Assembly (NCBI GenBank): GCA_011939005.1
Contig: GCA_011939005.1_4858.1
Source of the DNA: a phage
Direction: 5' to 3' (one strand)
DNA: 64,000 nucleotides
Shown here: positions 1 through 58,800 of the stretch, piece after piece
Numbering within the stretch: position 1 is the first letter of the stretch
Layout: each line of letters opens with the position of its first letter
The notes under the pieces: generated by a model
Seen by the model: the letters and a program-made list of their open reading frames with translations, nothing else
What the model was told of the DNA's origin: nothing
The model's database searches: none
Made by a program: the position numbers and the translations under genes

Positions 1-3000
1 GCCTGGAATAAACTGAATCAGTTCGGTGGCTGGGCGCGCGGTAAAATCGCGGGGATGGGCGGCGGAGAAGGTCCTGGTTTCTTAACCCGGATGCGTGGCC
101 TTATCAGCGGTAGTGTCCGTGGGGGCTTTGAAGCGGTAAGCTCTTTCGGTAAAGGATTGCTGGGTATCCGCGACGTTTACGATGACCACGGTAATGTTGT
201 ACTGCAAGGTGCACGTCTGGAAGCTGGAGAATACTATCAGGTCATTGATGGTAAAATGGTTCAGCTGAAAACGCTGGACGACATCAAACTGGGGAGTGAT
301 ATTGTTGACTCCGCAGGTAATCTGGTATTAGCAGCCGCTGACTTAGCCGCTGCGGGTAAACTCCGCTACTATAAAGGCGGGAAAATCCAAGCACTGACCC
401 AAGGTCTGGCCAGTAAGATTGGCTTAGGCTTTAATAAGGTGGCTAAGCTACCGAAACGGTTCCTGGATTTCCTGTCACCGAAAGCGGGCAGCATCGTTGG
501 TAAGATTAAGGACTGGCTGAACGAGATTCCGGAAGGCGAAGAAAAGACACGTCTCCAGAAAGCGTTCAACCGCGTAACGAGCTTACCGGGTAAAGTGCTC
601 GGTTTTGCGAAACGTGGTGTCGACCGTCTGAAAGACATGATTACCGACAACCCACTGACGCGTTGGTGGAAAGGCCGTAAAGATGGTGGGGGTGGTGGTT
701 TCAGTCTCTTCTCATCAACCGGCAAGAAAACCAACCACATCCTTATCCGTATCTATAAACTGTTGAACCAACGTTTACCGGGCGATCCGGAAGACGAAAG
801 TTGGACAGAAGAAATGGAGAAGGGTGTCGGTGGCGGTGGTAGTACGATCGGCCGTGCAGTTCGCGGGGCGTATAATCGTGCGAAATCGTCGTTGTCTGAA
901 CGTTTTGGTGGACGTTGGTCAAGAACAAAAGCGTTCTTTGGTCGTGGACGTGACCGCCTGCGTGGTTGGTTCAGTGGTTTCCGAGGCCGGGCTGGGGATA
1001 TGCTCGATGGATATCGTGGAGCACGACACGACATTGCTACACGTTACGAAGTTGAACGTCGGTTGGCTGGACGCGATGACGATGTTGCTGAGTTTTATCG
1101 CAGCCATTTGAACGCGAAAGGTGGTCTTTCTGGCCGTAAAGTCTACGGTGACGCGAAGGACGACCTTGAGACCGCGCGCGATGCAGCAGGTCGGGTTATC
1201 AACAAAGGGAAGAATGCTGCCAAGTCTGCAGGTGCAAGGTTATTCGAACGCTTGGACCGAATGATCGGCTTGCAAGAGATGTCATGGTTTAACACCATGC
1301 GCGAATCAGTATCCCGTGCAGGTGGTGACGATGGCATTATTCGTACCATGTTTGCGAAGTTCGGTAAACGTAACAAGCCACCTGAAAGTGATGAAAAACG
1401 CGACTACCTTAACTTCTTCAAACGTTGGCGTGAGAAACGTAAGGAGAAGAAAGAGAAAGCGCAGGGCTCCAAAGGGAAATCTGGCGGTCTGTGGGATATG
1501 GTGAAAGGCTTACCTATCATCGGTCCCATCGTCAGTATCTTGGGAACTGTGGGTAATATACTCGGTTCTATCACGAAATGGGGTGTGTTAAAACCAGTAG
1601 GTCTTTTAGGTAAGGCTGCGTGGAATGTCGGTAAGTTCGCAGTAACCCGTTTGGCGGCACCCGCGGTGTCCGCTGTGGCAACTGCGGCATCTGCCGTCGT
1701 GACAGCAGTGGGCTGGCCGGCAATTCTTATCGGTGGTGCGATCGCCGCGGCTGGTTACGCCGCGTACAGGATTGCAACGACTACCTATACCCAGTACCTG
1801 GATAAGATGCGTTTAGCTCAGTACGGTTTCCGTGATTACGATAAGTGGTCGTCGGACGACGGGGCGAAAGCGCGTTACTTAGAAGACGCATTGCGTGAGT
1901 ATGTGTCTTACGCGGAAGATGGCCAAGCCAGTCTCCGTGGGCTAAGTGGAAAAGACGTTCAGAAGTTAGCTGAAGGGTTCGGTATTAACGTTGAGGAAAA
2001 AGGCGAGATGTTGGCCTTCCAAGCGTTTATGCTTCAGCGCTTTATTCCGATTTATCTCCGCTGGATTACGGCACTGAAGTCAATGCCGAACAGTATCCAG
2101 TTGGCTGACGTCGGCGATGCGAAGAAAGTATCGAAAGAGGACATGCTGACTCTCTTCAACAAAATGAAGATGACTAAGGATGCAAAAGCGTTCTCTTCGT
2201 TAACAGACCCACGCAAAGTCAACCAAGGTTTCTTCTCGAAAGCTTGGGACGTTGTAACCTTTACACCGAAGGAGTTCTTGAGCGGTGAAGAGGTTATGGA
2301 AGTGCAGAATGAAGTCGAGCGTGCAATCAAGTCCAGAATGGACGATAAGAAAGCACGTAAGTACGGAATGGCACCGGCCGTGGAGGGGATTAAGTCCGCG
2401 GGCGTTGATGAAGCTATCAACAAACTTGGACAGTTGGATAACGAACGTAATAAAAATCTGGCGAAGGTAGAAGGTTGGGAAGACGGAACAGAGCAGGTTC
2501 AGATTCAGGTAGACTGGAATGCGGTGCTCGACCAGAAAGACATGAATGCGATGGAATCGGTGCGTTGGAAGACTTACGGCTTTACCACCATCGATAACGC
2601 CACCCGCACTTTGATCACGGTATTCGAGAAGAACGTCATCAAAGACATTGACGTGAAAACCGCAAGCTACAAAGGAGATTGGAAGAAAGCCATCGCCACG
2701 ATGGTTCCAGACGCTATCGGTACACCGAAAGAAGATCGTTTGAAACGGTGGTTCTTTGACCGTTTCTTACCGGTATTCATGACGTATTTGGTTGGGGTGA
2801 AGCGTTACCTGCCAACAGCCGATCCGCTGAACTTGAAACTGACCGGCGGCTACCTGTACGAAATCAGTCTGATGATGTCAACTGCCTACAGCCTGAAAGG
2901 TGGTATAAGACAGTCGGTGTGGGAAGTGAATATCAACCCATTAGGGGGTGAGGCTAACACGAACCCATCATCCATCAAAGCCGAACTGGAAACGCTGAAG

Positions 3001-4578
3001 CTGCTGTCAAAAGAAGCTGACCTTGCCGTGCGTAACATGATTAAAGCCATTAGAAATAATGGCAAGCGTGCGCGCTGGAAGGATCGTAACAAGAACCGCA
3101 GTTCTCTGGAAGTTACCGGTGAGGATGAAGAAGACTCGAACATCAGTTCGGGAGATTCTTTGTCATCTGACGGTGCTCGCGCCTCAGGCTACATTCCATC
3201 GGGTACGAGTGGTGGTGTGCCGGGTAACTTGGGTCAAGTCGTCGATGCGGTTGGTGGTGTGCGGAACTACGCTGCAATGACCACTGGTTCGTCTTCGATT
3301 AACCTGAGTGATGTGAAAGACGGTGATTATAAGTCACTGGCTGAAAAATACCCGATAGAAATGTTGGGTAGAAAGGGTGCGTTGAACGTTCCGAATATCA
3401 AAGCATTGATTACCGATGCGGCGAACATGATGGGCGTGCCACCTGCAGTGGCGTTAGCAATGGCTAAGGCGGAGTCCGGATTTAACTACACCGCTAAAAA
3501 CCCGTATGCTTCGGCGTCTGGGCTGTTCCAGTTCATTGACGGCACGTGGAACGGGATGATGAAGGGGTATTCGCGGAAGTTTGGTATTCCGCGTGTTAAC
3601 CAAATGGACCCGTGGGCGAATGCTATATTGGGTGTACAGTTCATTCGTGACAACATCCAACAAGCACAGCGTGACCTGGGTGGTAAAGCACCACCTCCAG
3701 CCGTGGCTTATCTGTACCACTTCTTGGGTGCAGGCGGCGGTAAGAAGTTCTTGGAAGCATGGAAGCGTAATCCGAATATGGCGGCATCGAGTGCTCCTGG
3801 GATTACATCTGCAATACTGAGAGGGAATGCCAACGTCTTCTACAGCAACGGTCGTATACGTAGCGTAGACGGGGTTATTCAGGAACTGAACCGCCGTATG
3901 GGCGCAATTTCCGCCAACGAAGTCGCTGCCGATCCGAGTAAGACGAAGGATATGGTTGCAGGCTTGTCGCCTAATTCACCAACCAACCCGGCAGCAGCAA
4001 TGGGTGCACCGGCCGCTAATGATCCGAGTCTGTCGCCAGCAGATAACCTGCCAGCAGATAATGCTAATCGTCGTGATGACGCATTGACGCAGAAAGGGGC
4101 CATGGCGGCACAAGATGCAATGGCTACCGCCGCAGGTAATGTAGGACCAGCAGCACCTACACCAACCACAGGCGGTACCGGAACATCCGATGCCTCAACA
4201 ACGGCCGAAACCGTAGCGTCGCAAGCTGCAGCAGAAGGATTGTCTGCGACGGATGTTGCTAAAGTGAAAGCAGGCGCGGAAGCGCAGGTTAACGCAGCAG
4301 CTCGTCCAGTTGCCGCTCCAACTTCTGATGCTACAGCATCGACGCCAACGCTGAATGGTGACCCGATGGATGTTCAGCAGCTCAAGGTACTGATTCAGTC
4401 TCGCGATTACTTGAAAGAGATTCGTGATATTTTGAAATCAAATCCGAGAGCAGCAAACGACACGCGTGGTGGTAGTATCCAGCAAGCGGCAAATGTGGCT
4501 CCTCCGGGCTCAGCTGCACGTAGGCAGGAAATAACCCAACCGACACCGTCGTTAAACGTAAGTCGGAAAGCAAGCTAA
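1..4578 (+). CDS. virion tape-measure-like / ejection protein with lytic transglycosylase (SLT) domain; 5' partial
   Basis: Frame 1 is open from base 1 (first in-window ATG at 55) to TAA at 4576-4578. Gly-rich linkers, hydrophobic helices (about nt 1510-1770), SLT motif ESGFN..AKNPYASASGLFQF..DGTW (about nt 3440-3560), Ala/Pro/Thr-rich linker near the C-terminus. Confidence 0.65.
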   Translation, partial: AWNKLNQFGGWARGKIAGMGGGEGPGFLTRMRGLISGSVRGGFEAVSSFGKGLLGIRDVYDDHGNVVLQGARLEAGEYYQVIDGKMVQLKTLDDIKLGSDIVDSAGNLVLAAADLAAAGKLRYYKGGKIQALTQGLASKIGLGFNKVAKLPKRFLDFLSPKAGSIVGKIKDWLNEIPEGEEKTRLQKAFNRVTSLPGKVLGFAKRGVDRLKDMITDNPLTRWWKGRKDGGGGGFSLFSSTGKKTNHILIRIYKLLNQRLPGDPEDESWTEEMEKGVGGGGSTIGRAVRGAYNRAKSSLSERFGGRWSRTKAFFGRGRDRLRGWFSGFRGRAGDMLDGYRGARHDIATRYEVERRLAGRDDDVAEFYRSHLNAKGGLSGRKVYGDAKDDLETARDAAGRVINKGKNAAKSAGARLFERLDRMIGLQEMSWFNTMRESVSRAGGDDGIIRTMFAKFGKRNKPPESDEKRDYLNFFKRWREKRKEKKEKAQGSKGKSGGLWDMVKGLPIIGPIVSILGTVGNILGSITKWGVLKPVGLLGKAAWNVGKFAVTRLAAPAVSAVATAASAVVTAVGWPAILIGGAIAAAGYAAYRIATTTYTQYLDKMRLAQYGFRDYDKWSSDDGAKARYLEDALREYVSYAEDGQASLRGLSGKDVQKLAEGFGINVEEKGEMLAFQAFMLQRFIPIYLRWITALKSMPNSIQLADVGDAKKVSKEDMLTLFNKMKMTKDAKAFSSLTDPRKVNQGFFSKAWDVVTFTPKEFLSGEEVMEVQNEVERAIKSRMDDKKARKYGMAPAVEGIKSAGVDEAINKLGQLDNERNKNLAKVEGWEDGTEQVQIQVDWNAVLDQKDMNAMESVRWKTYGFTTIDNATRTLITVFEKNVIKDIDVKTASYKGDWKKAIATMVPDAIGTPKEDRLKRWFFDRFLPVFMTYLVGVKRYLPTADPLNLKLTGGYLYEISLMMSTAYSLKGGIRQSVWEVNINPLGGEANTNPSSIKAELETLKLLSKEADLAVRNMIKAIRNNGKRARWKDRNKNRSSLEVTGEDEEDSNISSGDSLSSDGARASGYIPSGTSGGVPGNLGQVVDAVGGVRNYAAMTTGSSSINLSDVKDGDYKSLAEKYPIEMLGRKGALNVPNIKALITDAANMMGVPPAVALAMAKAESGFNYTAKNPYASASGLFQFIDGTWNGMMKGYSRKFGIPRVNQMDPWANAILGVQFIRDNIQQAQRDLGGKAPPPAVAYLYHFLGAGGGKKFLEAWKRNPNMAASSAPGITSAILRGNANVFYSNGRIRSVDGVIQELNRRMGAISANEVAADPSKTKDMVAGLSPNSPTNPAAAMGAPAANDPSLSPADNLPADNANRRDDALTQKGAMAAQDAMATAAGNVGPAAPTPTTGGTGTSDASTTAETVASQAAAEGLSATDVAKVKAGAEAQVNAAARPVAAPTSDATASTPTLNGDPMDVQQLKVLIQSRDYLKEIRDILKSNPRAANDTRGGSIQQAANVAPPGSAARRQEITQPTPSLNVSRKAS

Positions 4579-4582
4579 TCGT

Positions 4583-4602
4583 AGGGGGTGGCAACACCCC
4601 CT
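4583..4602 (+). promoter_or_regulatory. stem-loop in the junction between first and second virion genes
   Basis: agggggtg-gcaa-caccccct, perfect 8-bp stem immediately after the stop codon of the first gene; not followed by a U-run. Confidence 0.4.
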
Positions 4603-4626
4603 AATCATCTTACAGAGAGGTTTTAC

Positions 4627-6849
4627 GTGGAAGCAAGACAACTAAAAGATTCAGGATGGGTAACCGGCCTGTTTGGCGGTACAACCGCACAGCGCGATGA
4701 GCGCTTCCTGGGTTTGCGTCGTTACTCTAACGCGATGCTCTCGTTTGAAGATACCACGATGGGTGGTTCGCAAGCGTTAAATGCGCCGCCGCAGTTTACG
4801 ATGTTTGCTGATCCGAGTTCAACAGGTGCTTTTGCACAACCTGATGCAGGTCGTGGCTCGTACTCAAAGTACGTTAAAGGTCAAGACCAACGTGGTTCCT
4901 ATCGTTTAGGGACTTTCTATTACGAAGCTATTAACCAAAACAGTTTTTATCTTCATTGTCGTTTCGGTAAACCTCGATATATCGGGGTAGCTGCATTCTT
5001 CGCGAATATGTACGATTCCAACCTAGCGTATCTGGCACGCACAGGTGACTACCCAGGTATGTTACGTGCGATGGGGACGTATGTTGCCGCCGCAGCAATA
5101 TGGGCCGCAGTAGGTACGGTTGCCTTTGCGGTTATTCTAATTACACCACGTATGTTGAAGATGGTGCTGAACAAGCAGACTTCTCGCTACTACTACGTGA
5201 AACCGACAATGCACTTGTATCTGCGCGCTGTGCAGAATATGGTCAACACCCAGTTAGTTTATCGCCGATTGGTACCAACGGGTGTGTTAGGGACTTTCCA
5301 GCTTGCTAATGCTGTAGATGGGTCTGAGAAAGGCGGTACTGCTAATAAGTACAACGGCGACCGTAAAGAGTGGTACTCCATGCTGCCAGAAATCTGGACA
5401 GCTGATGGTGAGTTCGATATCTATCGAATGATTAACCGCTACCAAACATTAGCCAACTACCAGGCGAAAACCATCGATAAAATTCGTAAAGAGTCGAGTA
5501 ACGAAGAGGACATGGCTCGTCGTTTGCGAAACTTCTATCTGGAAGCGACGTACTCAACAACCCATTTGGAGAAAGCTGCGCAGTACGAGGTTTCTTTACG
5601 TAACCTTGAACATGTAGCCAAAGCTGGTAAAGGGTACGATGCTGGTTTTGAAAACGTCGACAACAAAGAAGACGAACTGGTAGCAGGGATGAACGGCAGC
5701 ATTCAGGATGCTCAGTCACAAGGGGGTAAGGCTGAAAACTTCGAAAACGAAGGTGATGCGCAACGTAAAGAGCTTGCCGAGCGTATGGCACAGGTTGAAA
5801 AGAACCAGGCACAGGTTGCTAAAAGTCAGACCGAAGCAAACTCAATGGATGAGAATAATCTCGACATTGGGAAGATTGAAAACTGGATGGACCAAGGCCA
5901 GAAAGAATCTGTCGGTAGCGTCTTCAAAGACTATATCGATATTTTAGAAGGCGCTATGGATGGGTTAACTTCGAACATCGCTTCGGAGATACGCAATGGT
6001 TCGCAGTGGATTACTTGGCGTGTTGATGGACGTGATACCGTAGGGCGTTCGTTCTCCAACACCACCAAAGAACCTGAAATCTCTGGCACGGTTAACTCCG
6101 CCACACAGAAAGCACGTTCTTTGGAAGTAAACCTCTCTGGTGGTAAGACTGGTTTCGACGCAGTCGATGGTCTCATTACTGGGTTGAAGTCCGCCTTTAC
6201 AGGCGCACTCGATTTCTTACATTTATCAGGGATTATGTCACTGTACAACTCGTCGGTGATTGACTTCCCGGAAGTGTGGGACTCCTCAGACACCTCAGGT
6301 GACGATATCTCGCTAAGTATTCCCCTTCGCTGTTGGTCGGGTAATGACTTAGATGTGTTTCAGGATCTGATTGTCCCGTTGTCGTTCTGGTTAGCGGCAG
6401 TTTGTCCGTTAGCAACCGGTAAACAATCGTTTACACACCCGTTCTATCTGGAGTGCTATTCTCGCGGTCGTTATTCCATGCGTAATGCCATGGTAACTAA
6501 CTTGAGTCTCCAGTTTGGTACAGGTGGGTTAGGGTGGCGTGCTGACGGTCTGCCGTTGTCGTGTGATATACAGGTAACTATTCGTGACCTGTCACGCGTT
6601 ATGTACATGCCGATTGTAACCGATATTGGTGTGTTTGATGATGATAACAAGTTCAGTGAATTTATGTCTGTGTTGGGTGCTGCCACGCTTTACGAGCGTA
6701 CCAACGGTATCGCGCAGGCTAAAATCAACGCGTCTATCTGGGCGCAGAACTGGGCAAGTGCCTGGTCACAGGGCAGCATCGTCAACGCCGCATTAGATAT
6801 CATACCGGCACGACAAATCGCGAACATTTTCCTACCACAAGCGCGATAG
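4627..6849 (+). CDS. hypothetical virion-associated protein with one predicted transmembrane helix
   Basis: ORF track gives a GTG start at 4588, but 4583-4602 is a stem-loop; in-frame GTG at 4627 is preceded by RBS agagagg. Hydrophobic segment GTYVAAAAIWAAVGTVAFAVILI. Start uncertain. Confidence 0.55.
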   Translation: MEARQLKDSGWVTGLFGGTTAQRDERFLGLRRYSNAMLSFEDTTMGGSQALNAPPQFTMFADPSSTGAFAQPDAGRGSYSKYVKGQDQRGSYRLGTFYYEAINQNSFYLHCRFGKPRYIGVAAFFANMYDSNLAYLARTGDYPGMLRAMGTYVAAAAIWAAVGTVAFAVILITPRMLKMVLNKQTSRYYYVKPTMHLYLRAVQNMVNTQLVYRRLVPTGVLGTFQLANAVDGSEKGGTANKYNGDRKEWYSMLPEIWTADGEFDIYRMINRYQTLANYQAKTIDKIRKESSNEEDMARRLRNFYLEATYSTTHLEKAAQYEVSLRNLEHVAKAGKGYDAGFENVDNKEDELVAGMNGSIQDAQSQGGKAENFENEGDAQRKELAERMAQVEKNQAQVAKSQTEANSMDENNLDIGKIENWMDQGQKESVGSVFKDYIDILEGAMDGLTSNIASEIRNGSQWITWRVDGRDTVGRSFSNTTKEPEISGTVNSATQKARSLEVNLSGGKTGFDAVDGLITGLKSAFTGALDFLHLSGIMSLYNSSVIDFPEVWDSSDTSGDDISLSIPLRCWSGNDLDVFQDLIVPLSFWLAAVCPLATGKQSFTHPFYLECYSRGRYSMRNAMVTNLSLQFGTGGLGWRADGLPLSCDIQVTIRDLSRVMYMPIVTDIGVFDDDNKFSEFMSVLGAATLYERTNGIAQAKINASIWAQNWASAWSQGSIVNAALDIIPARQIANIFLPQAR

Positions 6850-6871
6850 TACACCACAGAGGTAGCGCATT

Positions 6872-7411
6872 ATGAGTTTATTTGGAAAGACCGCAAAAGA
6901 GTTGGTTTACGATCTTATCGTGTCCCAGAATCCCGGACTGGCTGGTAAGGGCGTGACCATCGATAAATTGTCGTTCGGTAACCCGTCGCACATCACCGCA
7001 GCCGATCCTGACCCAGAACAGTACACCAGACTGAACACCAGTCTCGATGTTTCTGGTATCGTTGAGAAAGGTACGTTTGGTAAGATGGGTCTTACTTACC
7101 GTCGACTGGACGTAGCCCACCTGTTTGAAAACGTGGTGCTGTCTGTAGATGGTAGTAGCGCATCCACTGCTGCTGATCTTGTCCCGTTATTGCAGGCTAA
7201 GTATAACTGGATGATTGACACATCGGAGATCTATGCAAACGAGTCAATGACATCTTCCACGAAACACAATTTGCGTTTCAATGGCAAGTCTTTGGCTTGG
7301 ACTGGCACGGTTGAAGTTTATCTAACCGAAGTTCCAAGTGATGGCGTCGATATCAGTAAACTGATCACTGTTACTGAGCTGAATGGCTTGGTTTATGAAG
7401 TCTCGATATGA
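6872..7411 (+). CDS. hypothetical protein (last gene of structural operon)
   Basis: 179-aa ORF, ATG with RBS agagg upstream; followed by terminator. Confidence 0.6.
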   Translation: MSLFGKTAKELVYDLIVSQNPGLAGKGVTIDKLSFGNPSHITAADPDPEQYTRLNTSLDVSGIVEKGTFGKMGLTYRRLDVAHLFENVVLSVDGSSASTAADLVPLLQAKYNWMIDTSEIYANESMTSSTKHNLRFNGKSLAWTGTVEVYLTEVPSDGVDISKLITVTELNGLVYEVSI

Positions 7412-7420
7412 CGCAGGCGT

Positions 7421-7476
7421 AACAAAAAATAAGTATTACGAGTACCCCGTCGGGGTACTCGTTTGCTTTATTTTTT
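7421..7476. terminator. bidirectional rho-independent terminator
   Basis: Perfect 11-bp stem acgagtacccc/ggggtactcgt (7438-7462) flanked by A-run upstream and ttgctttatttttt downstream; sits between convergent genes. Confidence 0.75.
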
Positions 7477-7897
7477 AGCGTTCAATAATCACTCTTACGA
7501 TATCTTCTACCGGAGGGTAATACCACAGAACCACGCTGTTTCGTCCCAAGTCTTTTGGAAACGTTTGACAGTACGCAATGTCGGTGCCGAAGCGCTCAGA
7601 GAGCTTTAAAACGTTCTCTGGGAATTGACAGCCTCCTCGCCAATCATGCGTATAGAGTACCTGCTGTAGTAACTTCACATTAGCATCGAAGAAGTACAGA
7701 TTTTCCACTGGCGCAATATGTGGTACCGGAATTGGCGTGTCTGTAAGTACGAACTCCAAACCACCACATTGTTCTGAACGCTCCGCTAGGAGTTTCAGAT
7801 GCCATGGCATTAGACCGTGGTCTTCCCAGACGATATTGTTGACCAGTAAACGATCAACGTATTCATCGTAATCAACCGTGAACAGTTTCTTCGCCAT
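7475..7897 (-). CDS. hypothetical protein
   Basis: Minus-strand ORF; ATG at 7897 has RBS gagg, whereas track start 7912 lacks one. No motif recognised. Confidence 0.5.
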   Translation of the reverse strand: MAKKLFTVDYDEYVDRLLVNNIVWEDHGLMPWHLKLLAERSEQCGGLEFVLTDTPIPVPHIAPVENLYFFDANVKLLQQVLYTHDWRGGCQFPENVLKLSERFGTDIAYCQTFPKDLGRNSVVLWYYPPVEDIVRVIIER

Positions 7898-8813
7898 CGG
7901 TAAACGCCTCATCTTTTACAGTAAGGGAACCGTTTACTTCGATTTCAGCGGCGGTCATGTCTGCTTCTTTAACGAATATACCGTCCGCGTTCAGGAAACC
8001 CTTACGGTCTTTGATTTCATCCCACGCCAGAGAGAAACACTGTTCCAGAGTCATATCGTACGCATTAGCCAGCGCATTGGCGTATTCGACCATCTGCGCG
8101 AAGTGACATTCGATCATTACCGCGTCGCTGTTCTCGAAGTGTTTATATTCGAGTTGCTTAGCTGAGTCGATGCCGGCTTGATCCCAGATGTAATCAACAG
8201 CTGCTGTGAGATGGAAACGCATTTTGTGGAACAAGTAATGACTGTTCCCGGCGTGTGGTTTCTTTGAACGTGCGTCGTTGACGTATGTGCTGATATCGGT
8301 TGAGTCAAACTTAATGAGTTCCATCAAGTTAACCAACACGACCAGAGCATCACCGATACCGTCCATGATGTAACGACGTTTGTTTTTACTGATACCGGTT
8401 GCCGCTTCACCGTCTTCTTCGTAGAGTTTGGTGGCTTGGCTATACCAGACGCCGTTATCCAGAATACCACGCGCTTTAGACCAACCCATAACGTTAGTAA
8501 TACATTGTGGGATGGTGTACAAAGGTACGTAACGCGGACGATCAACCGTACCACGATACTCGACACCTTCCAACGTCCACGGCATTTCGAAATCATTTAT
8601 TTCCAAACGATGGTCGCCTGTGAAGACTTTACCTTCGACGTAAGTGTGACCGGTTTCACTGTTCACGCACAGGGTGTACAGTTTCTCAAAGGACCACGGT
8701 TTAACAAACTGACGTTGGCAGAATCCAGCCAGAAGCTCATTAATCTGTGCCAGGTACTGGTTAGGTTCAACAATAACGTTATACGGAATCTGGATAGTGA
8801 AACGATCGCCCAT
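7872..8813 (-). CDS. hypothetical protein; C-terminal half possibly MazG-like all-alpha NTP pyrophosphatase
   Basis: 313-aa ORF, ATG with RBS aaggag; MazG assignment rests only on an acidic helical segment (GIGDALVVLVNLMEL) and is weak. Confidence 0.55.
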   Translation of the reverse strand: MGDRFTIQIPYNVIVEPNQYLAQINELLAGFCQRQFVKPWSFEKLYTLCVNSETGHTYVEGKVFTGDHRLEINDFEMPWTLEGVEYRGTVDRPRYVPLYTIPQCITNVMGWSKARGILDNGVWYSQATKLYEEDGEAATGISKNKRRYIMDGIGDALVVLVNLMELIKFDSTDISTYVNDARSKKPHAGNSHYLFHKMRFHLTAAVDYIWDQAGIDSAKQLEYKHFENSDAVMIECHFAQMVEYANALANAYDMTLEQCFSLAWDEIKDRKGFLNADGIFVKEADMTAAEIEVNGSLTVKDEAFTDGEETVHG

Positions 8814-34375: not shown

Positions 34376-34969
34376 TTACGCTTCGGCCTCAAAGAACGGC
34401 TGGTTCGGTACCACTGCATATTCGAGCACGAAAAGATGTTCTGGGGCATCTTCTGCTCGCCACAGTTTGTGACACGTTGCCAGTTTTTCCAGGATGGTCA
34501 ACCAGCTGAGCTGGCAGAAAGCACGGTCGCCGAAGAACAGTTTCTGCAGTGCAATCGACACATCCATATACGCCTGTTTGAAGTCGAGTTCTTTATCGTA
34601 ACCCGCCGACTGTCGCCACGTCAGCACGAAACCTGCTTCGGTTTCGTTAATTGCTGGACGTAAACCACAAATCCACATCAGCGCCAGATTAACGTTCCAG
34701 TCGAATTCGATACCTTCGTCTTCGTCATCACCAAACGCCGCGTTTAACGCATCGTAGAAACCGTGGTTCTCTGCGAACCATTCGCCATACTCAACGTATA
34801 CCGGTGCTTCGACAGCTTCCCCATCGACTTCACCGATAGGACGCTCTACATAGTTCGGGTTGGTTTGAACGTGTTCCGCACCCGCGCGAATTAATTCGTA
34901 GACATCTTTGGCGGTGATTTGTGCGGCTGTTTTAAGACCTGGATACCAGGGGCGTGTTACGAGTGTCAA
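34376..34969 (-). CDS. hypothetical protein (apparent TTG start)
   Basis: 197 aa; no in-frame ATG/GTG near the 5' end; TTG at 34969 has strong RBS aaggag and overlaps upstream stop by 4 nt. Confidence 0.5.
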   Translation of the reverse strand: MTLVTRPWYPGLKTAAQITAKDVYELIRAGAEHVQTNPNYVERPIGEVDGEAVEAPVYVEYGEWFAENHGFYDALNAAFGDDEDEGIEFDWNVNLALMWICGLRPAINETEAGFVLTWRQSAGYDKELDFKQAYMDVSIALQKLFFGDRAFCQLSWLTILEKLATCHKLWRAEDAPEHLFVLEYAVVPNQPFFEAEA

Positions 34970-35688
34970 AGCAATGCTCCTTTCATGATAGTGTTATTTG
35001 CCAGTAGTGTACCGGCCGCAGGTGATATTTTGGTGTACAGCGTATCCCAGATTTTCTGAAGCTCAGCGACGCGTTGGTCGCGGTCTTCCTTCGCAAAAGC
35101 AAGCTGACGTGTTTCAGCTTTCGGTGGCGTCATTTTCGCACCGTAGAATGCTGCGTCTTTTCGGTAGCTGGCCATCCAGCGTTTCCCGACCGATGATTTC
35201 TTTTTAATCATCGCAACAGCAGCGCTCTCACCGAAGCGGTAGCCTAATGCGATTTCGGCTGTGCTCGGCTTGCGTTTGAGTTGTTTTGTCAGATGATCCT
35301 CGATGTGTTTCATGTAAACAGCAGCAAGCTGTACAGCATATTTCGGTTTATTAAGGTCTGCGTTCTTTGGGATGTTAAGTTGTTTCCCATACAGACGTAT
35401 CATGGAGCGTTTAGTGCCTGTCGTCATTTGGACAACACTACTAGCACTGCTCGATTTATTCTTACCCACGTTTTTATTAAAACGGGATTCGCGGTAAATG
35501 GTGGTCGCAAGCATCCCGGCATGTACACCTTGCTTTTGAGATGCAGAGACGATGAGAGGTTTAATCTCATTGAACTGGTCCTGGATAAGGACGAATTCTT
35601 TTTGGTGTTTGTTACTGGTGGTCTGGTAAGAAGCGTTGCTGTTGAATGTGGTCACTGCTACCAGAAGAAATAAAATGGTGCGAAACAT
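34966..35688 (-). CDS. secreted lytic transglycosylase-like protein (candidate endolysin)
   Basis: 240 aa; N-terminal signal peptide MFRTILFLLVAVTTFNSNA; ESRFNKNVGKNKSSSASSVVQMTTGT aligns with the SLT motif of the large virion protein at 1-4578. Confidence 0.55.
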   Translation of the reverse strand: MFRTILFLLVAVTTFNSNASYQTTSNKHQKEFVLIQDQFNEIKPLIVSASQKQGVHAGMLATTIYRESRFNKNVGKNKSSSASSVVQMTTGTKRSMIRLYGKQLNIPKNADLNKPKYAVQLAAVYMKHIEDHLTKQLKRKPSTAEIALGYRFGESAAVAMIKKKSSVGKRWMASYRKDAAFYGAKMTPPKAETRQLAFAKEDRDQRVAELQKIWDTLYTKISPAAGTLLANNTIMKGALL

Positions 35689-52081: not shown

Positions 52082-55000
52082 ATGGCTGTCGTCCCTGACC
52101 CGCACTATCAAGAACCGGGGAATATGCAGACCGGTGAAGCGGTAACGCCGATCGGTACTAAGTACCGGATGCTGTTCCCCGCACACGCCCCCTTTTATAC
52201 CACATCCCTGGTGGTCAAGAGTGGCGGCAAGAAATTAACATTAGGTGATGATTACGTCATCACCCATGCGTACGTTACGGGCATGGCACGCACTGGCCAT
52301 GTTTGTCACGGCGGCGTGTGGATTACCAACCCGAAATATCAGAGTGGCTTTACACTCGATTACCACGCAATTGGCATCGGTGAAGCCACTGCAGAAATGA
52401 TCGCCGCAGAACGAGAAGCGAATAAAGATCGCTATCCCGTGGACTGCCAATGGGATAACGTCATTGGGGATTTATATTTCCCACCGGTCGATATTAAGTT
52501 CGATTGGGAAAACTGGCGTGGCGAATCTGAGTTGATGGAAGCCATTGTTGCGGTTGGTGCTAAGCTCGGTGAAGCGATCAGTCGCGTTGACCCGATTGCT
52601 CGTAACACGTTAGACCTTCAATATCGCGCCGGCGTCACGCTTATCACGTCCGAGCAGTATGCGACGTACGACGGTACTGGCGGCTACACGTATAACGCGT
52701 CACGTCGTCGTTATTCGTTATCTTACCAGAACACGACATTCGATGCGTATTCGTTAGCGGTAAAATACCGTTTACCGAGCATTCCACCGGAAACAACGTT
52801 GAACCCAGGCGAGTTGATCGATTGGATGCTCTGTTACGCAAACGGTGGGACAAGTATCCTGCGTCTTCAGTTGAAGCAACGCGCGATTTATCTTACCTTA
52901 ACGACAGCGATTGGTTCCGGTTCGTCCAATTACAGCTATACGTTGACGACTGGCCTGACTGATACCGAGTTGGCGGGTGAGGTTGAGTTTAGCGTGGTCA
53001 GACGCGAAGGTAACGGCGTTTACGACATCACCGTTAAAACAAGCAAGCAAACCGTTAACTACAGCTTTAACGTTGACAACCCACCGAGCGAATTTGCACC
53101 AGGGTATCAGAAAACTGATGTCGCAAAATGGTTGAAGTTTAAATCGGGCGTCAACCTAAACTGGTGGGCAGGTGAGAACGATTACGTCCAGATTCGTTCA
53201 TTACCAGGCGCACCGGCACCTGACGTTAACAATGACGTGTACCAGCTGCTGGTAAAATATCACCAGATTGTCGATAAACTGTACCGTGATGCACCGGCAC
53301 ACACACACGTGCCGCGCAAGGATAACCCGCATCGCGATTCGTGGGGCGCAATCCGTGCTTTGGAGAATAACGGTATTGCTTCGGACGCGACACTGGTATA
53401 CGGAAAAACGCAACCGCAGCTGACAGATTACGTTAACAATCTGTTGCCGAAACTGTCAACGCTGGCGAATAAGCTTTTACGTTTACCGGCGGCTGCACAG
53501 TCTATCATCGGCACGTTCGGCATGAAGCCTGGCCTGACTTCAATAACGTCAGCAGTGGGTACCGATGAGTCTGAAGGCGTGGGTGCACAATTCACGGTTG
53601 ACCCGAGGGTTATCCGTTTTATTGGCCGCGATTCGCAAACCGTTAACGCCGGGAACAATCCGATTACATGGCAAGGTGGGGCTAACCAACTCATCCTTTA
53701 TCCGGATTCCCGTGGATTGGAGTTCAACGGTAAGAAACTGTTGGACCCTACTACGGTCGGGCCGTACCTGCCGGGTAACGAATCAGGTGGTGATGGACTG
53801 TTTTACGGAACATCCACAGCTACTGTAACCATTAACGGTAACGGTATTCAGTCTGTTCCGTTCATTTGTACCTTTGTTCCACCGGAGTCCGATGACCTTG
53901 GCCTGATGGCTGTCCGTTTGTTGGCTACTGAATTCGGCGATCGTGAGGACTTGGCCGCAACGCCGGCACTCATCAAGAAATTGGATCAGCAGTTTACGGG
54001 CAAGTTGGTTGCCGTTAAATCGTACATCAACGACATGCCACTGACGAGTTCTATTTACATCGATAAAACTAACTTCGGCTTATCGAACGTACAGAACATC
54101 CCAGATGTACAATTGCCGATTTCCCCGCTCCAACAAGCTGAGCTGGACAAGTATGCAGTCGTCGGTCACAAACACACTTCTGCCGCGTTCGGGATTAAGC
54201 GTGCAACAACGACGGAGTTCGGTTTAGTACAGTTCGGCACCGCGGTTGACGATGCCACTCTGGCATTAGACGGTGGTGAGGTCATCCGACAGGCGGACGC
54301 CATCACAGAGATAGAGAAGGTTGCGAAGACAGTCGACTCTGGTGCTTCAATCAACATTATTCGTTACGGTTTACCCGGCACGGATATCATTGAAAACGGC
54401 ATCACTTACACCGACTGGATGGTTACTATTAAAGCGAACGATTATTTCGTTGGTCGCGAGTACAAAGTACCTCTCTCCACATTTAACTTGGCGGAGCTAT
54501 TCCCAGCGACGCACGAAGATGCTGAGTTTGGCGTGTATGTTGACGCGGCGGGCGATGACGGCAAGTACATTATCTACGAAAATCCAAACACGGCAGAAAC
54601 TGAGACGATGACCAAAATAGGTTCCATCATCACCAGTGAAACCGGTGTGGTTTTTGTAGAAATCCGCAACGTGACGCGTTTAGGTGAGTTCCGTGAATTA
54701 GGCGAGCATATCGAGGATGATAACGCCCATATTCGTCGGGGCATGACGCAAGCTGAATTCGGATTTACTTACGGTACGGGCGGGCCTGTGTGGTCCACGG
54801 GCGCACCGGGTACAAAACGTATAGATGCTGATTGGCGTTACGCGCAGGCTAGCGGCTATACGCCTATGTTGAAAGCGGACTACGATCCGGCTGCTGATAA
54901 ATGGACGTTTAAAACAACCAGTTTATCTGTAACCGATTATCGTTTTGTCCACAACACGTTCCCGATGTTCCAGAATAACGGCATTACCGCAACGTGGACA

Positions 55001-55795
55001 CCTTTAACCGCAACAGCGGACAGTGTGCTAGAAACGGTAATTGGGTGTTGTCATCACTCGGCCACGTTCATGCACCGTATTTCTGTACTCGTCGCACGCA
55101 CCGCAGGACGTATTACCACTCCAGGCGGTGTGAGCACGTATGCGGGAATCGCGGTTAACTACGGACGTGCTGCGCAGGTTGTTATTGGCTTGAACGGCGT
55201 TACTGGTTCCGGCCATGACTGGACGGCACTTAATCCATCGGTGCGTTTCAGCCACGCGCGAACAGCGGACGGTATTTCGTTCGTGGGAACGATTAACATC
55301 GATTCCAAAACGATTAACTTTGAGCTGACGCTAACCGCGACAACAAAGACGCTGAAATACACCTTGCAGTCGACCGGCGAGTCGTGGACTGAGGATTTGT
55401 CTACCCGTCTCCGTCCTGACTATATCGACTTGACGAAACTGATTACCGATCCGAGTACGCCGATTTATCACGGCGTGGGTGGTTTGTTTAGTTCCGACAC
55501 AGAAGCGCGTTTGACCTACGCTAACCTGAACACGATGCCGACAAAGAATCGTTATTACGCCACGTTCCTTGACTATGCGATTAACTATTCCGGCTTAAAC
55601 CGCGCAAGATTCTTTACTGGCGTGGTGGATGCAGGTTCAACGATTAATGAGATGAACAGCGCGATGAGCAACTATTCATACAGTTCGTTCCGACCAGTGG
55701 ATACAGGTAAAATTCCACTGGTGGCACACCCATCCAAGATGATGACGTTCAATCCGAAAAACACGTCAGCTCGAACACTTATTATTCGTGATTAA
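52082..55795 (+). CDS. long tail-fibre protein (1237 aa)
   Basis: ATG with RBS aaggag; fibre-repeat motif HTSAAFGIKRATTTEFGLVQFGTA of the T4 gp34/gp37 type; Thr/Gly/Asn-rich beta-type composition. Confidence 0.75.
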   Translation: MAVVPDPHYQEPGNMQTGEAVTPIGTKYRMLFPAHAPFYTTSLVVKSGGKKLTLGDDYVITHAYVTGMARTGHVCHGGVWITNPKYQSGFTLDYHAIGIGEATAEMIAAEREANKDRYPVDCQWDNVIGDLYFPPVDIKFDWENWRGESELMEAIVAVGAKLGEAISRVDPIARNTLDLQYRAGVTLITSEQYATYDGTGGYTYNASRRRYSLSYQNTTFDAYSLAVKYRLPSIPPETTLNPGELIDWMLCYANGGTSILRLQLKQRAIYLTLTTAIGSGSSNYSYTLTTGLTDTELAGEVEFSVVRREGNGVYDITVKTSKQTVNYSFNVDNPPSEFAPGYQKTDVAKWLKFKSGVNLNWWAGENDYVQIRSLPGAPAPDVNNDVYQLLVKYHQIVDKLYRDAPAHTHVPRKDNPHRDSWGAIRALENNGIASDATLVYGKTQPQLTDYVNNLLPKLSTLANKLLRLPAAAQSIIGTFGMKPGLTSITSAVGTDESEGVGAQFTVDPRVIRFIGRDSQTVNAGNNPITWQGGANQLILYPDSRGLEFNGKKLLDPTTVGPYLPGNESGGDGLFYGTSTATVTINGNGIQSVPFICTFVPPESDDLGLMAVRLLATEFGDREDLAATPALIKKLDQQFTGKLVAVKSYINDMPLTSSIYIDKTNFGLSNVQNIPDVQLPISPLQQAELDKYAVVGHKHTSAAFGIKRATTTEFGLVQFGTAVDDATLALDGGEVIRQADAITEIEKVAKTVDSGASINIIRYGLPGTDIIENGITYTDWMVTIKANDYFVGREYKVPLSTFNLAELFPATHEDAEFGVYVDAAGDDGKYIIYENPNTAETETMTKIGSIITSETGVVFVEIRNVTRLGEFRELGEHIEDDNAHIRRGMTQAEFGFTYGTGGPVWSTGAPGTKRIDADWRYAQASGYTPMLKADYDPAADKWTFKTTSLSVTDYRFVHNTFPMFQNNGITATWTPLTATADSVLETVIGCCHHSATFMHRISVLVARTAGRITTPGGVSTYAGIAVNYGRAAQVVIGLNGVTGSGHDWTALNPSVRFSHARTADGISFVGTINIDSKTINFELTLTATTKTLKYTLQSTGESWTEDLSTRLRPDYIDLTKLITDPSTPIYHGVGGLFSSDTEARLTYANLNTMPTKNRYYATFLDYAINYSGLNRARFFTGVVDAGSTINEMNSAMSNYSYSSFRPVDTGKIPLVAHPSKMMTFNPKNTSARTLIIRD

Positions 55796-55807: not shown

Positions 55808-58800
55808 ATGAAAACGTATCCTTACGATCCTCGGGGTGTAAATCCTGAGTGTCACTTCATCGAGGAACGTATCATCGACTCCGACAATCCTAACGATCGG
55901 GTGGTGATGCTAGATCATCGCCCGTTTTTCGAAGGATTGGTGGTAAGGCTCGCCGGCTCGTCCATACCGCTTACCCGCGGGACGGACTATGAGCTGGAGT
56001 ATGCTTTAACACCGTTGGACGACTCGGTGACGACCCCGGTGTTTTGCGGGGTGCATCTTATTAACCCTAAACTGCGTGGTGCGGTGGTCTTTGAAGGCCA
56101 GATGCTCGGGGGTACGTTTTACAGTGGTTTGATTGAGATGTTGGATGAGCTAGTTAAGGCACTCAACAATCCAACGGCTGCAGATTGGCTGCTTTTAGGT
56201 AATCGACCTTCCCTGTACCCAGCCACCCCTGCAGCGGTGGCTTGGTCAGACATGCTGAATAAAAAGTATGTTGCCTCTGCAGTGCATGATGTGGAGTTAG
56301 ATGCCGGGGCGGCCAACGAGCAGATTCGTGAAAAGCTTACTGAGCTGAAAGATGCGGTTTTGGGCTTAGGAACTGAAATCGCCGCATTTAACTACCCCGG
56401 ACACATTGCGTCGACTAACCCTCATGGGACTACCGCGGCGCAGGCCGGTGCGCATCCTGTCAACCTGAAAACGCCAGATACTTTCCTGGCGTATGGAAAG
56501 ACGTTGCGTCAGTTAACCAGCGAGGTCCGTGCACTGGGTCTGCAACAATCGGATATCGACAAGTACATTTCTAAATGGGTATCGAAAGAATCCAAAGGGG
56601 TGTTTAATGCGACGATATCCGGTACTCGTGCCCTGTTCCGTTCTCCTGCTGGTGAATCCGAAATTGTGTTCTCTGCTGAGGCATTCACTCTTAAATCTAA
56701 TGGCTCTGTTGTGTTGGCGTGTGGGTATGCCGACACTACTGGAACCGTCCGGTTTATGGAGTGGAAAGCAGGCATCAATACATTACGTATTGAGTCGACT
56801 GGCAGTGCCTTGGGGATGGATAAGCTGACGCTTAATGGTACGACGTTACTGACCACAACTGCTCTCATGGGCTATCAACAAGACCCTGGTACCGGCGGTG
56901 GTACCGTTGACCCGGATGACAACAAACTGTACATTAGCGGGGTGAACGGCATCACTTTCACGGGTAAAGGGTCAAAAGCCGATCCCGTCACCGGGAAGGT
57001 CACAGCCAAACCCGCGACGACCTCTGAACCAGGCGTTGTGACGCTGACTGATAAGCCGAGCGATGTAGTCAAAGGGCAAGCAGCCACCCCGTCGGCGCTT
57101 TTGCCGTATGAGGGCGACCTGTCTTCGTACGTCAGGAAGACAACGCTGCTGAATAACCAGCCGATGAACACTGGTAGTCGAACGCTGACGAAAAAGGATT
57201 TAGGTTTAGACTTGGCTGATAACACAGCTGACGTCGATAAACCACTTTCTGATGCGTTGGCAGAAGCAGTTACCGGTCTTAGTGATAAAGGTCACCATCA
57301 CAACTTCGCTGATTTACAGATTCCAACAGCCTCTCAAACTGTGCCAGGTATCGCACGATACTCTACCAACTTAAACGGCTTGGCGGATAATCGCGGCGTT
57401 ACCCCGAATGTTCTGAACGATCTGTCAAAACGTTTAGACGTAGTTGCAGCTGCGCTAGCAAACGCGAAAGAGGATTCCGTGACCGATTTTGCCGCTGTGC
57501 GTGGTAAGACTTGGACTGTGGGATCTACACGTACCACCCTCGCCGTAACGGATTTGAATTATTTCTATCTGTTAAATGGTGCACGTAAAGAGGGGACGGT
57601 ATCTGGTTCGATAGACCTGCAAACCACCCCGATGTTCCAGTGGTTCTCTCCAGATAACCGTATGGAAAGAACGTGGCAGAACGCGGTAATTAATATCGGT
57701 GACGGTATTGATTTTAGTGGGTTTGAGGTTGCCGTCCCGGAAACGAACTACGGTGCGCAGATTGGGTTAACGGCAACCGGCATGGGTGACTTATCGGTTG
57801 TTAACCTTTTAGCAAAAACGTGGGTTCGTTGCGATACAGGTAAACTACGTATTTGGGTTCGTGGCGGTGGTGCTGTTTCTGTTTATCTGGACGGTGTAAT
57901 TATCGGTGCGGGTATTACAGAAGCGGGGTATCTGGAGGCGACTGTCAAAGAGGGGTGGAAGCAACATTGCCTGGCGTTTCGTGCGGAATGTAACAATAGC
58001 GCGAAAGCAGCTGCTATACGCTTCACCATTTACGATGGTGATTACCCGGTTGCGGTGTCGGACAAAAACACCAAAGTTGCCCGCCTGCAGGAGTTTGTTA
58101 AGACCGCGAACGGTTTACGACATTATCTTTACGTGAACATGATAACCAACGCATTGTATTCACGTGCGGAACCCATTGTGGACACGGAAGGTATTAACCT
58201 GGAGCGTGGGTACATTGGTTACATTGATGTACCCGAGACGGGATTGGTTGCAGGTACGACTTACGAGTTTGAAACGACGTTTGATTTTGGCATGGCGTCC
58301 GAACTTAAACGGCACTTCGAAACACGTCTGGCGCACGGAGTGAGTAATGCCGACTGGTCGTTGACGGATAACCCAAAAATGTTACCGCTAAACAAAGTCG
58401 ATCCGTTGCCTAAACAGTGGCTTTATGCGTACCCTAATAGTCCAGTTTCTGGTAACCACTATATTCGATTAGACCGAGGGTTATTCGATTATAAATTTGA
58501 TAGTACCATTTCAAGCCTAGTGTTTGTTGGAGCGGTTGTCTCCACAGAAAGCGCATCACCGTACTGCTGGTTTACACCAAGCAACCCGAAAGAAAAAGGG
58601 ATGGCGACGTTTGAAGGTTCTGTGGTGGTCGATGTTGATTTGTCGGAAGCACAAACAGTTCGCGTTCGCGATATCACATTAAACTTCATGGCCCCGTCTG
58701 CAGATGATAAAAGCAAGACCAGGGTACTGAGATGGAGTGGCAATCGTCCAGAATTGAATTGTGGCTTCATCACGTCTCCTTATAACCAAGCAACTGGAGG

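Follow-up and report, generated by a model that had tools for sequence, protein, structure and literature searches.

The DNA analyzed here is a 64,000-nucleotide stretch from a phage (NCBI GenBank assembly GCA_011939005.1, contig GCA_011939005.1_4858.1; one strand, 5′ to 3′), referred to below as the window, and the subject of the analysis is the open reading frame with which it begins (ORF1). Sequence comparison revealed that bases 1–7500 share approximately 97% nucleotide identity with Salmonella phage SPN3US and its close relatives, a group of jumbo myoviruses (genus Seoulvirus) related to phiKZ; by this identity, the window is that of an SPN3US-like jumbo phage. Judged by alignment, ORF1 represents the last two thirds of a giant tail protein, which is the orthologue of SPN3US gp239 and a member of the phiKZ gp181 family. 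The following features were recognized in ORF1 (residue numbers are those of the reading frame; pLDDT, predicted local distance difference test):

1–4578, plus strand: C-terminal 1525 codons and stop codon of the giant tail protein (PHROG 3201), from the open frame and the identity to gp239
601–1491, plus strand: basic Gly-rich low-complexity region, residues 201–497, whose Lys/Arg/Glu-rich end adjoins the hydrophobic block (composition, translation)
1492–1776, plus strand: hydrophobic Gly/Ala-rich block, residues 498–592 (95 residues), with approximately 3–4 transmembrane-like segments (Kyte-Doolittle scan)
1810–2226, plus strand: helical module A, starting with RLAQYG, residues about 604–742 (hhalign; AlphaFold2 pLDDT about 85–95)
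2557–2955, plus strand: helical module B (second copy), starting with SVRWKTYG, residues about 853–985 (hhalign; AlphaFold2 pLDDT approximately 80–90)
3406–3873, plus strand: SLT-type lytic transglycosylase domain, residues 1136–1291 (Pfam PF01464; PDB 3bkh and 9xps_S, phiKZ gp144)
3472–3474, plus strand: predicted catalytic Glu codon (GAG), residue 1158, in AKAESGF (aligned with Glu115 of gp144)
3901–4350, plus strand: Ala/Pro/Thr-rich linker, probably disordered, residues 1301–1450 (composition)
4363–4575, plus strand: C-terminal helix and basic tail, ending in PTPSLNVSRKAS (family comparison)

In plus-strand frame 1 no stop codon occurs from base 1 until positions 4576–4578, which gives 1525 codons; the first ATG within the window lies at position 55, and a count from there gives 1507 amino acids. 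The orthologous gene of SPN3US is 7119 nt long and encodes a protein of 2372 aa. Since the ORF1 product aligns with residues 848–2372 of this protein (99.1% aa identity), the reading frame is truly 5′-truncated, as had been stated in a preliminary description of this DNA, and its first 847 codons lie outside the window. The differences from gp239 are limited to strain-level substitutions, and the neighboring genes are the same (gp238 and gp237). The full-length SPN3US gene is also consistent with the architecture given in the preliminary description, namely that of a giant virion protein combining membrane-spanning helices with an SLT domain.

ORF1 matches PHROG 3201 (E = 0), whose label is “tail fiber protein”. 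Pairwise comparison of full-length SPN3US gp239 with phiKZ-type gp181 revealed four blocks of homology placed in the same order, including N-terminal, middle and C-terminal ones, and in tblastn analysis the SLT domain of phiKZ-type phages was found to be 35.6% identical. By this ordered homology over the full length, and not by the lysin alone, ORF1 is assigned to the PHROG 3201/gp181 family. A shared order of genes, in which virion RNA polymerase beta genes (divergent) precede the gene of the giant SLT protein and this in turn a gp182-like gene, likewise occurs in six genera, represented by SPN3US, Asesino, EarlPhillipIV, Serratia phage 2050HW, Ralstonia phage RP12 and the phiKZ-type phage KTN4. 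The RNA polymerase side of this arrangement lies upstream of the window and was read from near-identical genomes and from the five other genera; in SPN3US, two genes for virion RNA polymerase beta subunits lie upstream of the giant gene in divergent orientation.

The location of the protein in the virion has been determined in SPN3US, where gp239 (259.1 kDa) was named the tail tape measure protein (PMC5105663, PMC10052503). In the mass spectrometry data for this phage (Table S2), gp237, gp238 and gp239 were all scored “Tail”. The mean number of peptide-spectrum matches for gp239 was 570 in wild-type virions, compared to 2.7 in tailless heads (a >100-fold depletion), and the protein was missing from particles of a second tailless SPN3US mutant.

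The region covering about residues 201–497 of ORF1 is rich in Arg/Lys and Gly (e.g. 17 K/R in residues 451–500, and GGGGG and GGGG runs). In the adjacent hydrophobic block the Kyte-Doolittle value of a 19-mer reaches a maximum of 1.91, and Asp and Glu are absent over approximately 100 residues. The preliminary description had pointed to Arg/Lys-rich and Gly-rich segments, to a hydrophobic region of about 90 residues likely to form several membrane helices and to an Ala/Pro/Thr-rich linker. All of these were recovered, at about residues 201–497, at 498–592 (as some 3–4 hydrophobic segments) and at 1301–1450, respectively.

The SLT domain was identified by a match to PF01464 on residues 1136–1224 (E = 3.4e-10; 39.9 bits, with a curated cut-off of 21.3), and a phmmer search of the PDB matched phiKZ gp144 (3bkh) at E = 2.5e-15. 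Domains of the SLT type are defined by the motifs E-S, G-L-x-Q and A-Y-N-x-G. The first two are both present in ORF1 (AKAE-S-GF … SGLFQF), whereas the third motif, AYLYHFLGAGG, is similar to LYLAHFFGPG of gp144 and unlike the classical A-Y-N-x-G. The SLT domain announced in the preliminary description is thus backed by a significant profile match, but its designation as a family-1 lytic transglycosylase is only approximate, since the third motif resembles that of gp144. Residue 1158, the predicted catalytic Glu, is aligned with Glu115 of gp144, which is reportedly the catalytic residue of that enzyme (Fokine et al. 2008). By these motif comparisons the active-site motif of ORF1 is intact, and the protein is predicted to cleave peptidoglycan. 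The lysin domain of the phiKZ homologue, gp181, is muralytic, with an activity of 60,000 U/mg (PMC5380687, a review citing Briers et al. 2008).

Two further observations concern SLT proteins of these phages. According to the phiKZ atlas, the endolysin gp144 doubles as a structural protein, of which six copies are wedged between the neck whiskers and the sheath (PMC13250141; PDB 9xps chain S); the closest solved relative of the ORF1 SLT domain thus sits in the neck of the phiKZ virion. A second SLT protein is encoded in the window at positions 34966–35688, on the minus strand (239 aa; Pfam SLT, E = 1.4e-6); its SPN3US counterpart is labeled “transglycosylase”. This second protein is probably the endolysin, in which case the two would parallel gp144 and gp181 of phiKZ.

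The segment between the hydrophobic block and the lysin was analyzed at the profile level. An hhalign comparison of the first and the second half of a 17-sequence alignment of this middle region gave a probability of 99.3% (E = 2.5e-20). Self-BLAST of full-length gp239 detected no internal repeat, and the duplication is visible at the profile level only. Both copies have R-x-A/K-x-Y-G at the start and W-F-x-x-R-F-x-P at the end. An AlphaFold2 model of residues 601–1043, built with 17 diverse sequences, had a pLDDT of 74.1; an earlier run, on residues 596–1300 with a 4-sequence alignment, gave a mean pLDDT of 41.8 and was discarded. A search of PDB sequences with the middle-region profile revealed no relative (best E = 0.96), no fold relative of the helical modules was found in the PDB, and their structure matches in BFVD were to members of the giant-protein family only. 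As judged from these alignments and models, the approximately 440 residues between the hydrophobic segment and the lysin are tandem helical modules found only in this family of giant proteins.

The family was surveyed exhaustively with HMMER, the query being the middle region without the lysin (ORF1 residues 596–1130); this survey replaced two word-indexed searches of a large protein database that had returned only SPN3US-like fragments, probably from low-complexity words. The middle region matched 210 clusters, nearly all of them 2100–2650 aa long and matched in an equivalent part of the protein. Features were counted over 127 near-full-length representatives, which have a median length of 2308 aa (5–95% range, 2147–2627 aa). 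The most hydrophobic 19-mer scores at least 1.6 in 119 of the 127, and in 81 of the 86 representatives bearing the motif R-L-A-Q-Y-G it is placed 30–52 residues upstream of this motif. By these counts the hydrophobic segment is a conserved feature of the family, beyond what would be expected by chance; a separate comparison of orthologues also showed its position to be conserved. The N-terminus is acidic in most members. A loose basic motif at the C-terminus (hydrophobic-x-hydrophobic-S/G-R/K) was found by the strict pattern in 69/127 representatives, and related forms occur in most others.

In several representatives (P0016, P0040, P0080, P0132, P0142 and P0149) the SLT motif pair E-S…G-L-x-Q is replaced by HETGGF, and a BFVD structural match from Ralstonia phage RSL2 carries the name GH19 catalytic domain protein. 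The HETGGF motif is read as GH19-like. Since some members carry it and the RSL2 match is named GH19, the comparison suggests that the lysin is an exchangeable module at a fixed position. The protein, its location in the tail and its lysin domain have already been published for SPN3US and phiKZ; newly noted here are (i) the hydrophobic segment conserved in position, (ii) the duplicated helical module and (iii) the alternative lysin in some members.

The region downstream of ORF1 contains two genes transcribed in the same direction and two hairpins:

4584–4601, plus strand: perfect 7-bp GC-rich hairpin, GGGGGTG-GCAA-CACCCCC (read from the sequence)
4627–6849, plus strand: ORF2, orthologue of SPN3US gp238, 740 aa from a GTG at 4627 preceded by AGAGAGG (PDB matches, SPN3US annotation)
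5068–5160, plus strand: hydrophobic stretch of ORF2 (AMGTYVAAAAIWAAVGTVAFAVILITPRMLK), approximately 30 residues (Kyte-Doolittle up to 2.37)
6872–7411, plus strand: ORF3, orthologue of SPN3US gp237, 179 aa, DUF7941, tail protein (Pfam PF25613, E = 3.6e-26; mass spectrometry)
7438–7462, either strand: terminator-like hairpin with an 11-bp stem, T-rich on both sides and readable on both strands (hairpin scan)

The start of ORF2 is most likely the GTG at 4627, which agrees with the 740-aa SPN3US annotation. In the PDB, ORF2 matches phiKZ gp182 (9xqs_K; E = 3.4e-62) and Goslar gp203 (11lx_H; E = 4.7e-57). The former makes up a hexameric “spacer” ring that separates the ring of the tube initiator from the trimeric hub (PMC13250141), and the latter forms, on the hub side, one of the two layers of a tube initiator complex that the authors liken to T4 gp48 and gp54 (Goslar preprint). 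BLASTP comparison of ORF2 with T4 gp48 itself was not significant. SPN3US gene 238 is essential, and gp238 is tail-associated. A further PDB chain, 36za_rp, which bears the name “Capsid decorator gp77”, also matches ORF2 (E = 5.9e-56); unless this name is mistaken, that phage employs a gp182-like protein at another site.

In the preliminary description both downstream genes were regarded as partners of ORF1 in a DNA-delivery module, one of them with a transmembrane helix. The hydrophobic stretch in question exists in ORF2, where it is aligned with a less hydrophobic part of phiKZ gp182, but since this homologue has been solved as part of a soluble baseplate ring, the label of a membrane helix is so far unjustified. 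As a partner, ORF2 holds its place, being a conserved neighbor and a homologue of gp182, which is located at the tube/hub junction. This is not the case for ORF3, a tail protein without a hydrophobic stretch like that of ORF2, without a sequence relative in the PDB and without a paralogue inside the window, which matches three places per Seoulvirus genome. Among the genomes examined, ORF3 adjoins the giant gene only in Seoulvirus and Erskinevirus; in EarlPhillipIV, RP12 and KTN4 its homologues either occupy other parts of the genome or went undetected beside the giant gene. In more distant Erwinia phages, homologues of ORF3 were observed approximately 80–90 kb from the giant gene. Since the homologues are distant or undetected beside the giant gene in farther relatives, the adjacency is lineage-specific and ORF3 is not a conserved partner.

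The hairpin at 4584–4601 lies 6 nt past the ORF1 stop codon, overlaps a GTG at 4588 (the mechanical start of ORF2) and has no T-run following it; it may serve RNA stability or processing between ORF1 and ORF2. The hairpin at 7438–7462 is suggestive of a bidirectional terminator, closing the three-gene plus-strand unit against a convergent gene (7475–7912); shuffled sequence contains at least as many terminator-like sites as this region. Elsewhere in the window, two very large virion structural proteins of 1237 and 1376 aa, without a Pfam match, are encoded on the plus strand at positions 52082–55795 and 55808–59938. Neither tRNA genes nor Rfam families were found in the whole window.

We propose, with a probability of roughly 0.75, that the ORF1 protein serves this SPN3US-like phage both as its tail tape measure and as an ejection protein. 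Established are what the protein is, its presence in the tail of SPN3US, the intact SLT motif, the muralytic activity of the phiKZ homologue and the structural role of the gp182 homologue, whereas the function as a ruler, the position inside the tube, the sequence of exit and the insertion into the membrane or formation of a channel are inferred. In the proposed mechanism, several copies of gp239 would lie inside the tail tube, with the conserved C-terminal end probably at the hub end, by the gp238 ring, while the N-terminal 1300–1400 or so residues, mostly encoded outside the window, would run up the tube and serve as the length ruler during assembly. Upon contraction of the sheath the hub and spike would leave, and the C-terminal part of gp239 would be the first to exit. 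The SLT domain would cut the peptidoglycan locally, and the hydrophobic segment and the two helical modules would insert into, or associate with, the inner membrane, by which the tube would be extended as a DNA conduit. The preliminary description had left the choice between a tape-measure and an ejection protein of the internal virion type; the tape measure and tail assignment, with the lytic transglycosylase and membrane-type helices, agrees with the SPN3US papers and with the findings on phiKZ gp181, whereas an internal (head) protein does not fit with its near-absence from tailless heads.

The support for the ruler function is indirect and comprises (i) the narrow range of lengths within the family, (ii) the constant number of sheath layers, (iii) the size of the N-terminal part and (iv) the T4-like gene order. 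Both phiKZ and Goslar have 44 sheath layers and a tail of approximately 2000 Å (PMC13250141; Goslar preprint), and these values were used in place of those of SPN3US. The number of residues N-terminal to RLAQYG has a median of 1402, corresponding at 1.5 Å per residue to approximately 2100 Å. ORF1 is directly followed by the gene of a ring in the T4 gp48 position, and in T4 gene 29 is followed by gene 48.

The ejection part of the proposal is modeled on T4 gp29, which comprises a coiled coil, a transmembrane segment, a helical bundle and a C-terminal loop at the tube's distal end, and which has been seen forming a membrane conduit; transmembrane-like segments are common in tape measure proteins (10.64898/2026.03.06.709160). 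Traits of the tape-measure type are present at this locus as well, i.e. the transmembrane-like segment and a gene adjoining that of a hub/tube-initiator protein. By analogy with T4 gp29 and the tape measure proteins of siphophages, the giant protein may form a channel, as the preliminary description had suggested. It is also conceivable, though this is put forward only tentatively, that the modules and the hydrophobic segment together make up an undescribed membrane-inserting or periplasm-spanning conduit domain, an independently arisen counterpart of the T4 gp29 helical bundle.

Several observations count against the tape measure assignment. The phiKZ atlas, in which 40 proteins were assigned, mentions neither gp181 nor a tape measure (PMC13250141), and the Goslar preprint contains no mention of a tape measure (gp181 was searched by name in the phiKZ paper only). 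None of the Pfam tape-measure families matches the window fragment (E up to 0.01) or full-length gp239 (E up to 1), the scan of the latter having returned SLT families and one sub-threshold ComX match. Comparison of the middle region with T4 gp29 by hhalign gave a probability of 0.1%, i.e. no similarity, and phiKZ is a weak outlier in the family survey, the hydrophobic segment of gp181 being weak and containing charged residues. With 2372 residues, the protein exceeds the need of a 2000 Å helix by approximately 1000 residues, and some 900 C-terminal residues per chain, including the folded SLT domain, would have to find room in the tube lumen. In addition, public records label the giant protein as “tail fiber” or “lytic transglycosylase”. 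Since tape measure proteins are very diverse, the missing family match lowers the case for family membership and not that for functional analogy.

The excess of approximately 1000 residues over a simple ruler for a 2000 Å tail would fit with an ejected tail lysin or cargo protein, located in the baseplate or distal tube and released on contraction, with the length of the tail set otherwise. Such a role would also agree with the lack of a tape-measure Pfam match and with the fact that no structure places the giant protein in the tube lumen. It is nevertheless unlikely, given the tightly constrained length of the family, the position of the gene directly before the ring gene in the gp48 position, as in T4, the agreement of the domain order with T4 gp29 and the treatment of gp239 as a tape measure protein by the SPN3US authors. 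For phiKZ gp181, a role as the central needle-like cell-puncturing device of the baseplate was proposed in 2008, and a review (PMC5380687), referring to Briers et al. 2008 and to Fokine et al. 2008, gives it the entry “needle-like cell-puncturing device, putative trimer”. The centre of the phiKZ baseplate in the atlas is, however, made up of the spike gp164, tip gp163.1, hub gp101, pin gp174, spacer gp182 and tube initiator gp88 (PMC13250141). The Goslar preprint also gives the spike and hub to other proteins, and Pfam scans revealed no beta-helix or OB-fold spike domain. The baseplate structures solved for phiKZ and Goslar largely refute a central spike, and a slim chance is left to the needle-like device.

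Two other roles concern the head and the fibers. In tblastn analysis, the SLT domain was 32–36% identical to that in “internal virion protein D” of T7-like phages, and many head proteins are known to be ejected by SPN3US, which would favor an ejection protein of the T7 gp16 type that is packaged inside the capsid and, once ejected, builds a trans-envelope channel. The likeness to podophage proteins is, however, confined to the SLT domain, and with gp239 depleted >100-fold in tailless heads and missing from those of the second tailless mutant, this role is highly improbable; a head ejection protein is refuted by the published head-versus-virion proteomics. The name “tail fiber protein”, given in many records and to PHROG 3201, as in most GenBank records of the family, appears to have been copied between records, and supporting evidence for it was not found in the papers examined. 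The protein carries a lysin and a hydrophobic block, no receptor-binding or fiber-type domain was detected in it, and the phiKZ fibers are proteins of the gp131 family (PMC13250141). A tail fiber was rejected on the basis of this domain content and the phiKZ fiber assignment, and is credited with next to no likelihood.

The residual value of the tape measure assignment is that it points to a giant protein that goes unmentioned as a tape measure in the 2026 phiKZ paper and the Goslar preprint. For SPN3US a working amber-mutant genetic system exists, and concrete targets for mutagenesis are offered by the hydrophobic segment conserved throughout the family, by the helical module present in duplicate and by the exchangeable lysin. 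Such targets could show how the contractile tail of a jumbo phage moves 240 kb of DNA and many ejected proteins across the inner membrane.

Among known systems, phiKZ gp181, a structural peptidoglycan hydrolase of 2237 aa, shares with ORF1 the ordered blocks of homology, the position of the SLT domain and the flanking genes. Outside this domain gp181 and SPN3US gp239 are approximately 21–24% identical in alignable blocks, and the sequences of the Ala/Pro/Thr-rich linker and the basic Gly-rich region of gp239-type proteins are lineage-specific compared with gp181. The likeness to T4 gp29 (590 aa; tape measure and baseplate hub) lies in the order of the domains, an extended N-terminal part being followed by a transmembrane-like segment, a helical domain and a C-terminal end at the tube ring on the hub side, and in a next gene that encodes a tube-capping ring (gp48 in T4, the gp182 homologue here). 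In contrast to this likeness, there is no detectable sequence or profile similarity between the two, the giant protein is four times longer, and it has an added lysin and linker, whereas the lysozyme of T4 is carried by the spike protein gp5 and not by the tape measure. A ruler, a peptidoglycan hydrolase and membrane-active segments are likewise combined in one tail-lumen protein in T5 Pb2 and mycobacteriophage TM4 Tmp. These belong to non-contractile tails, their lysins are a peptidase (Pb2) and Rpf-like motifs (TM4), and they have no homology to the giant protein outside the lysin. Finally, T7 gp16 and “internal virion protein D” have an SLT domain of the same subfamily, membrane-spanning segments and a role in genome delivery, but T7 gp16 belongs to the core of the head and leaves through the tail on ejection, whereas gp239 is a protein of the tail itself.

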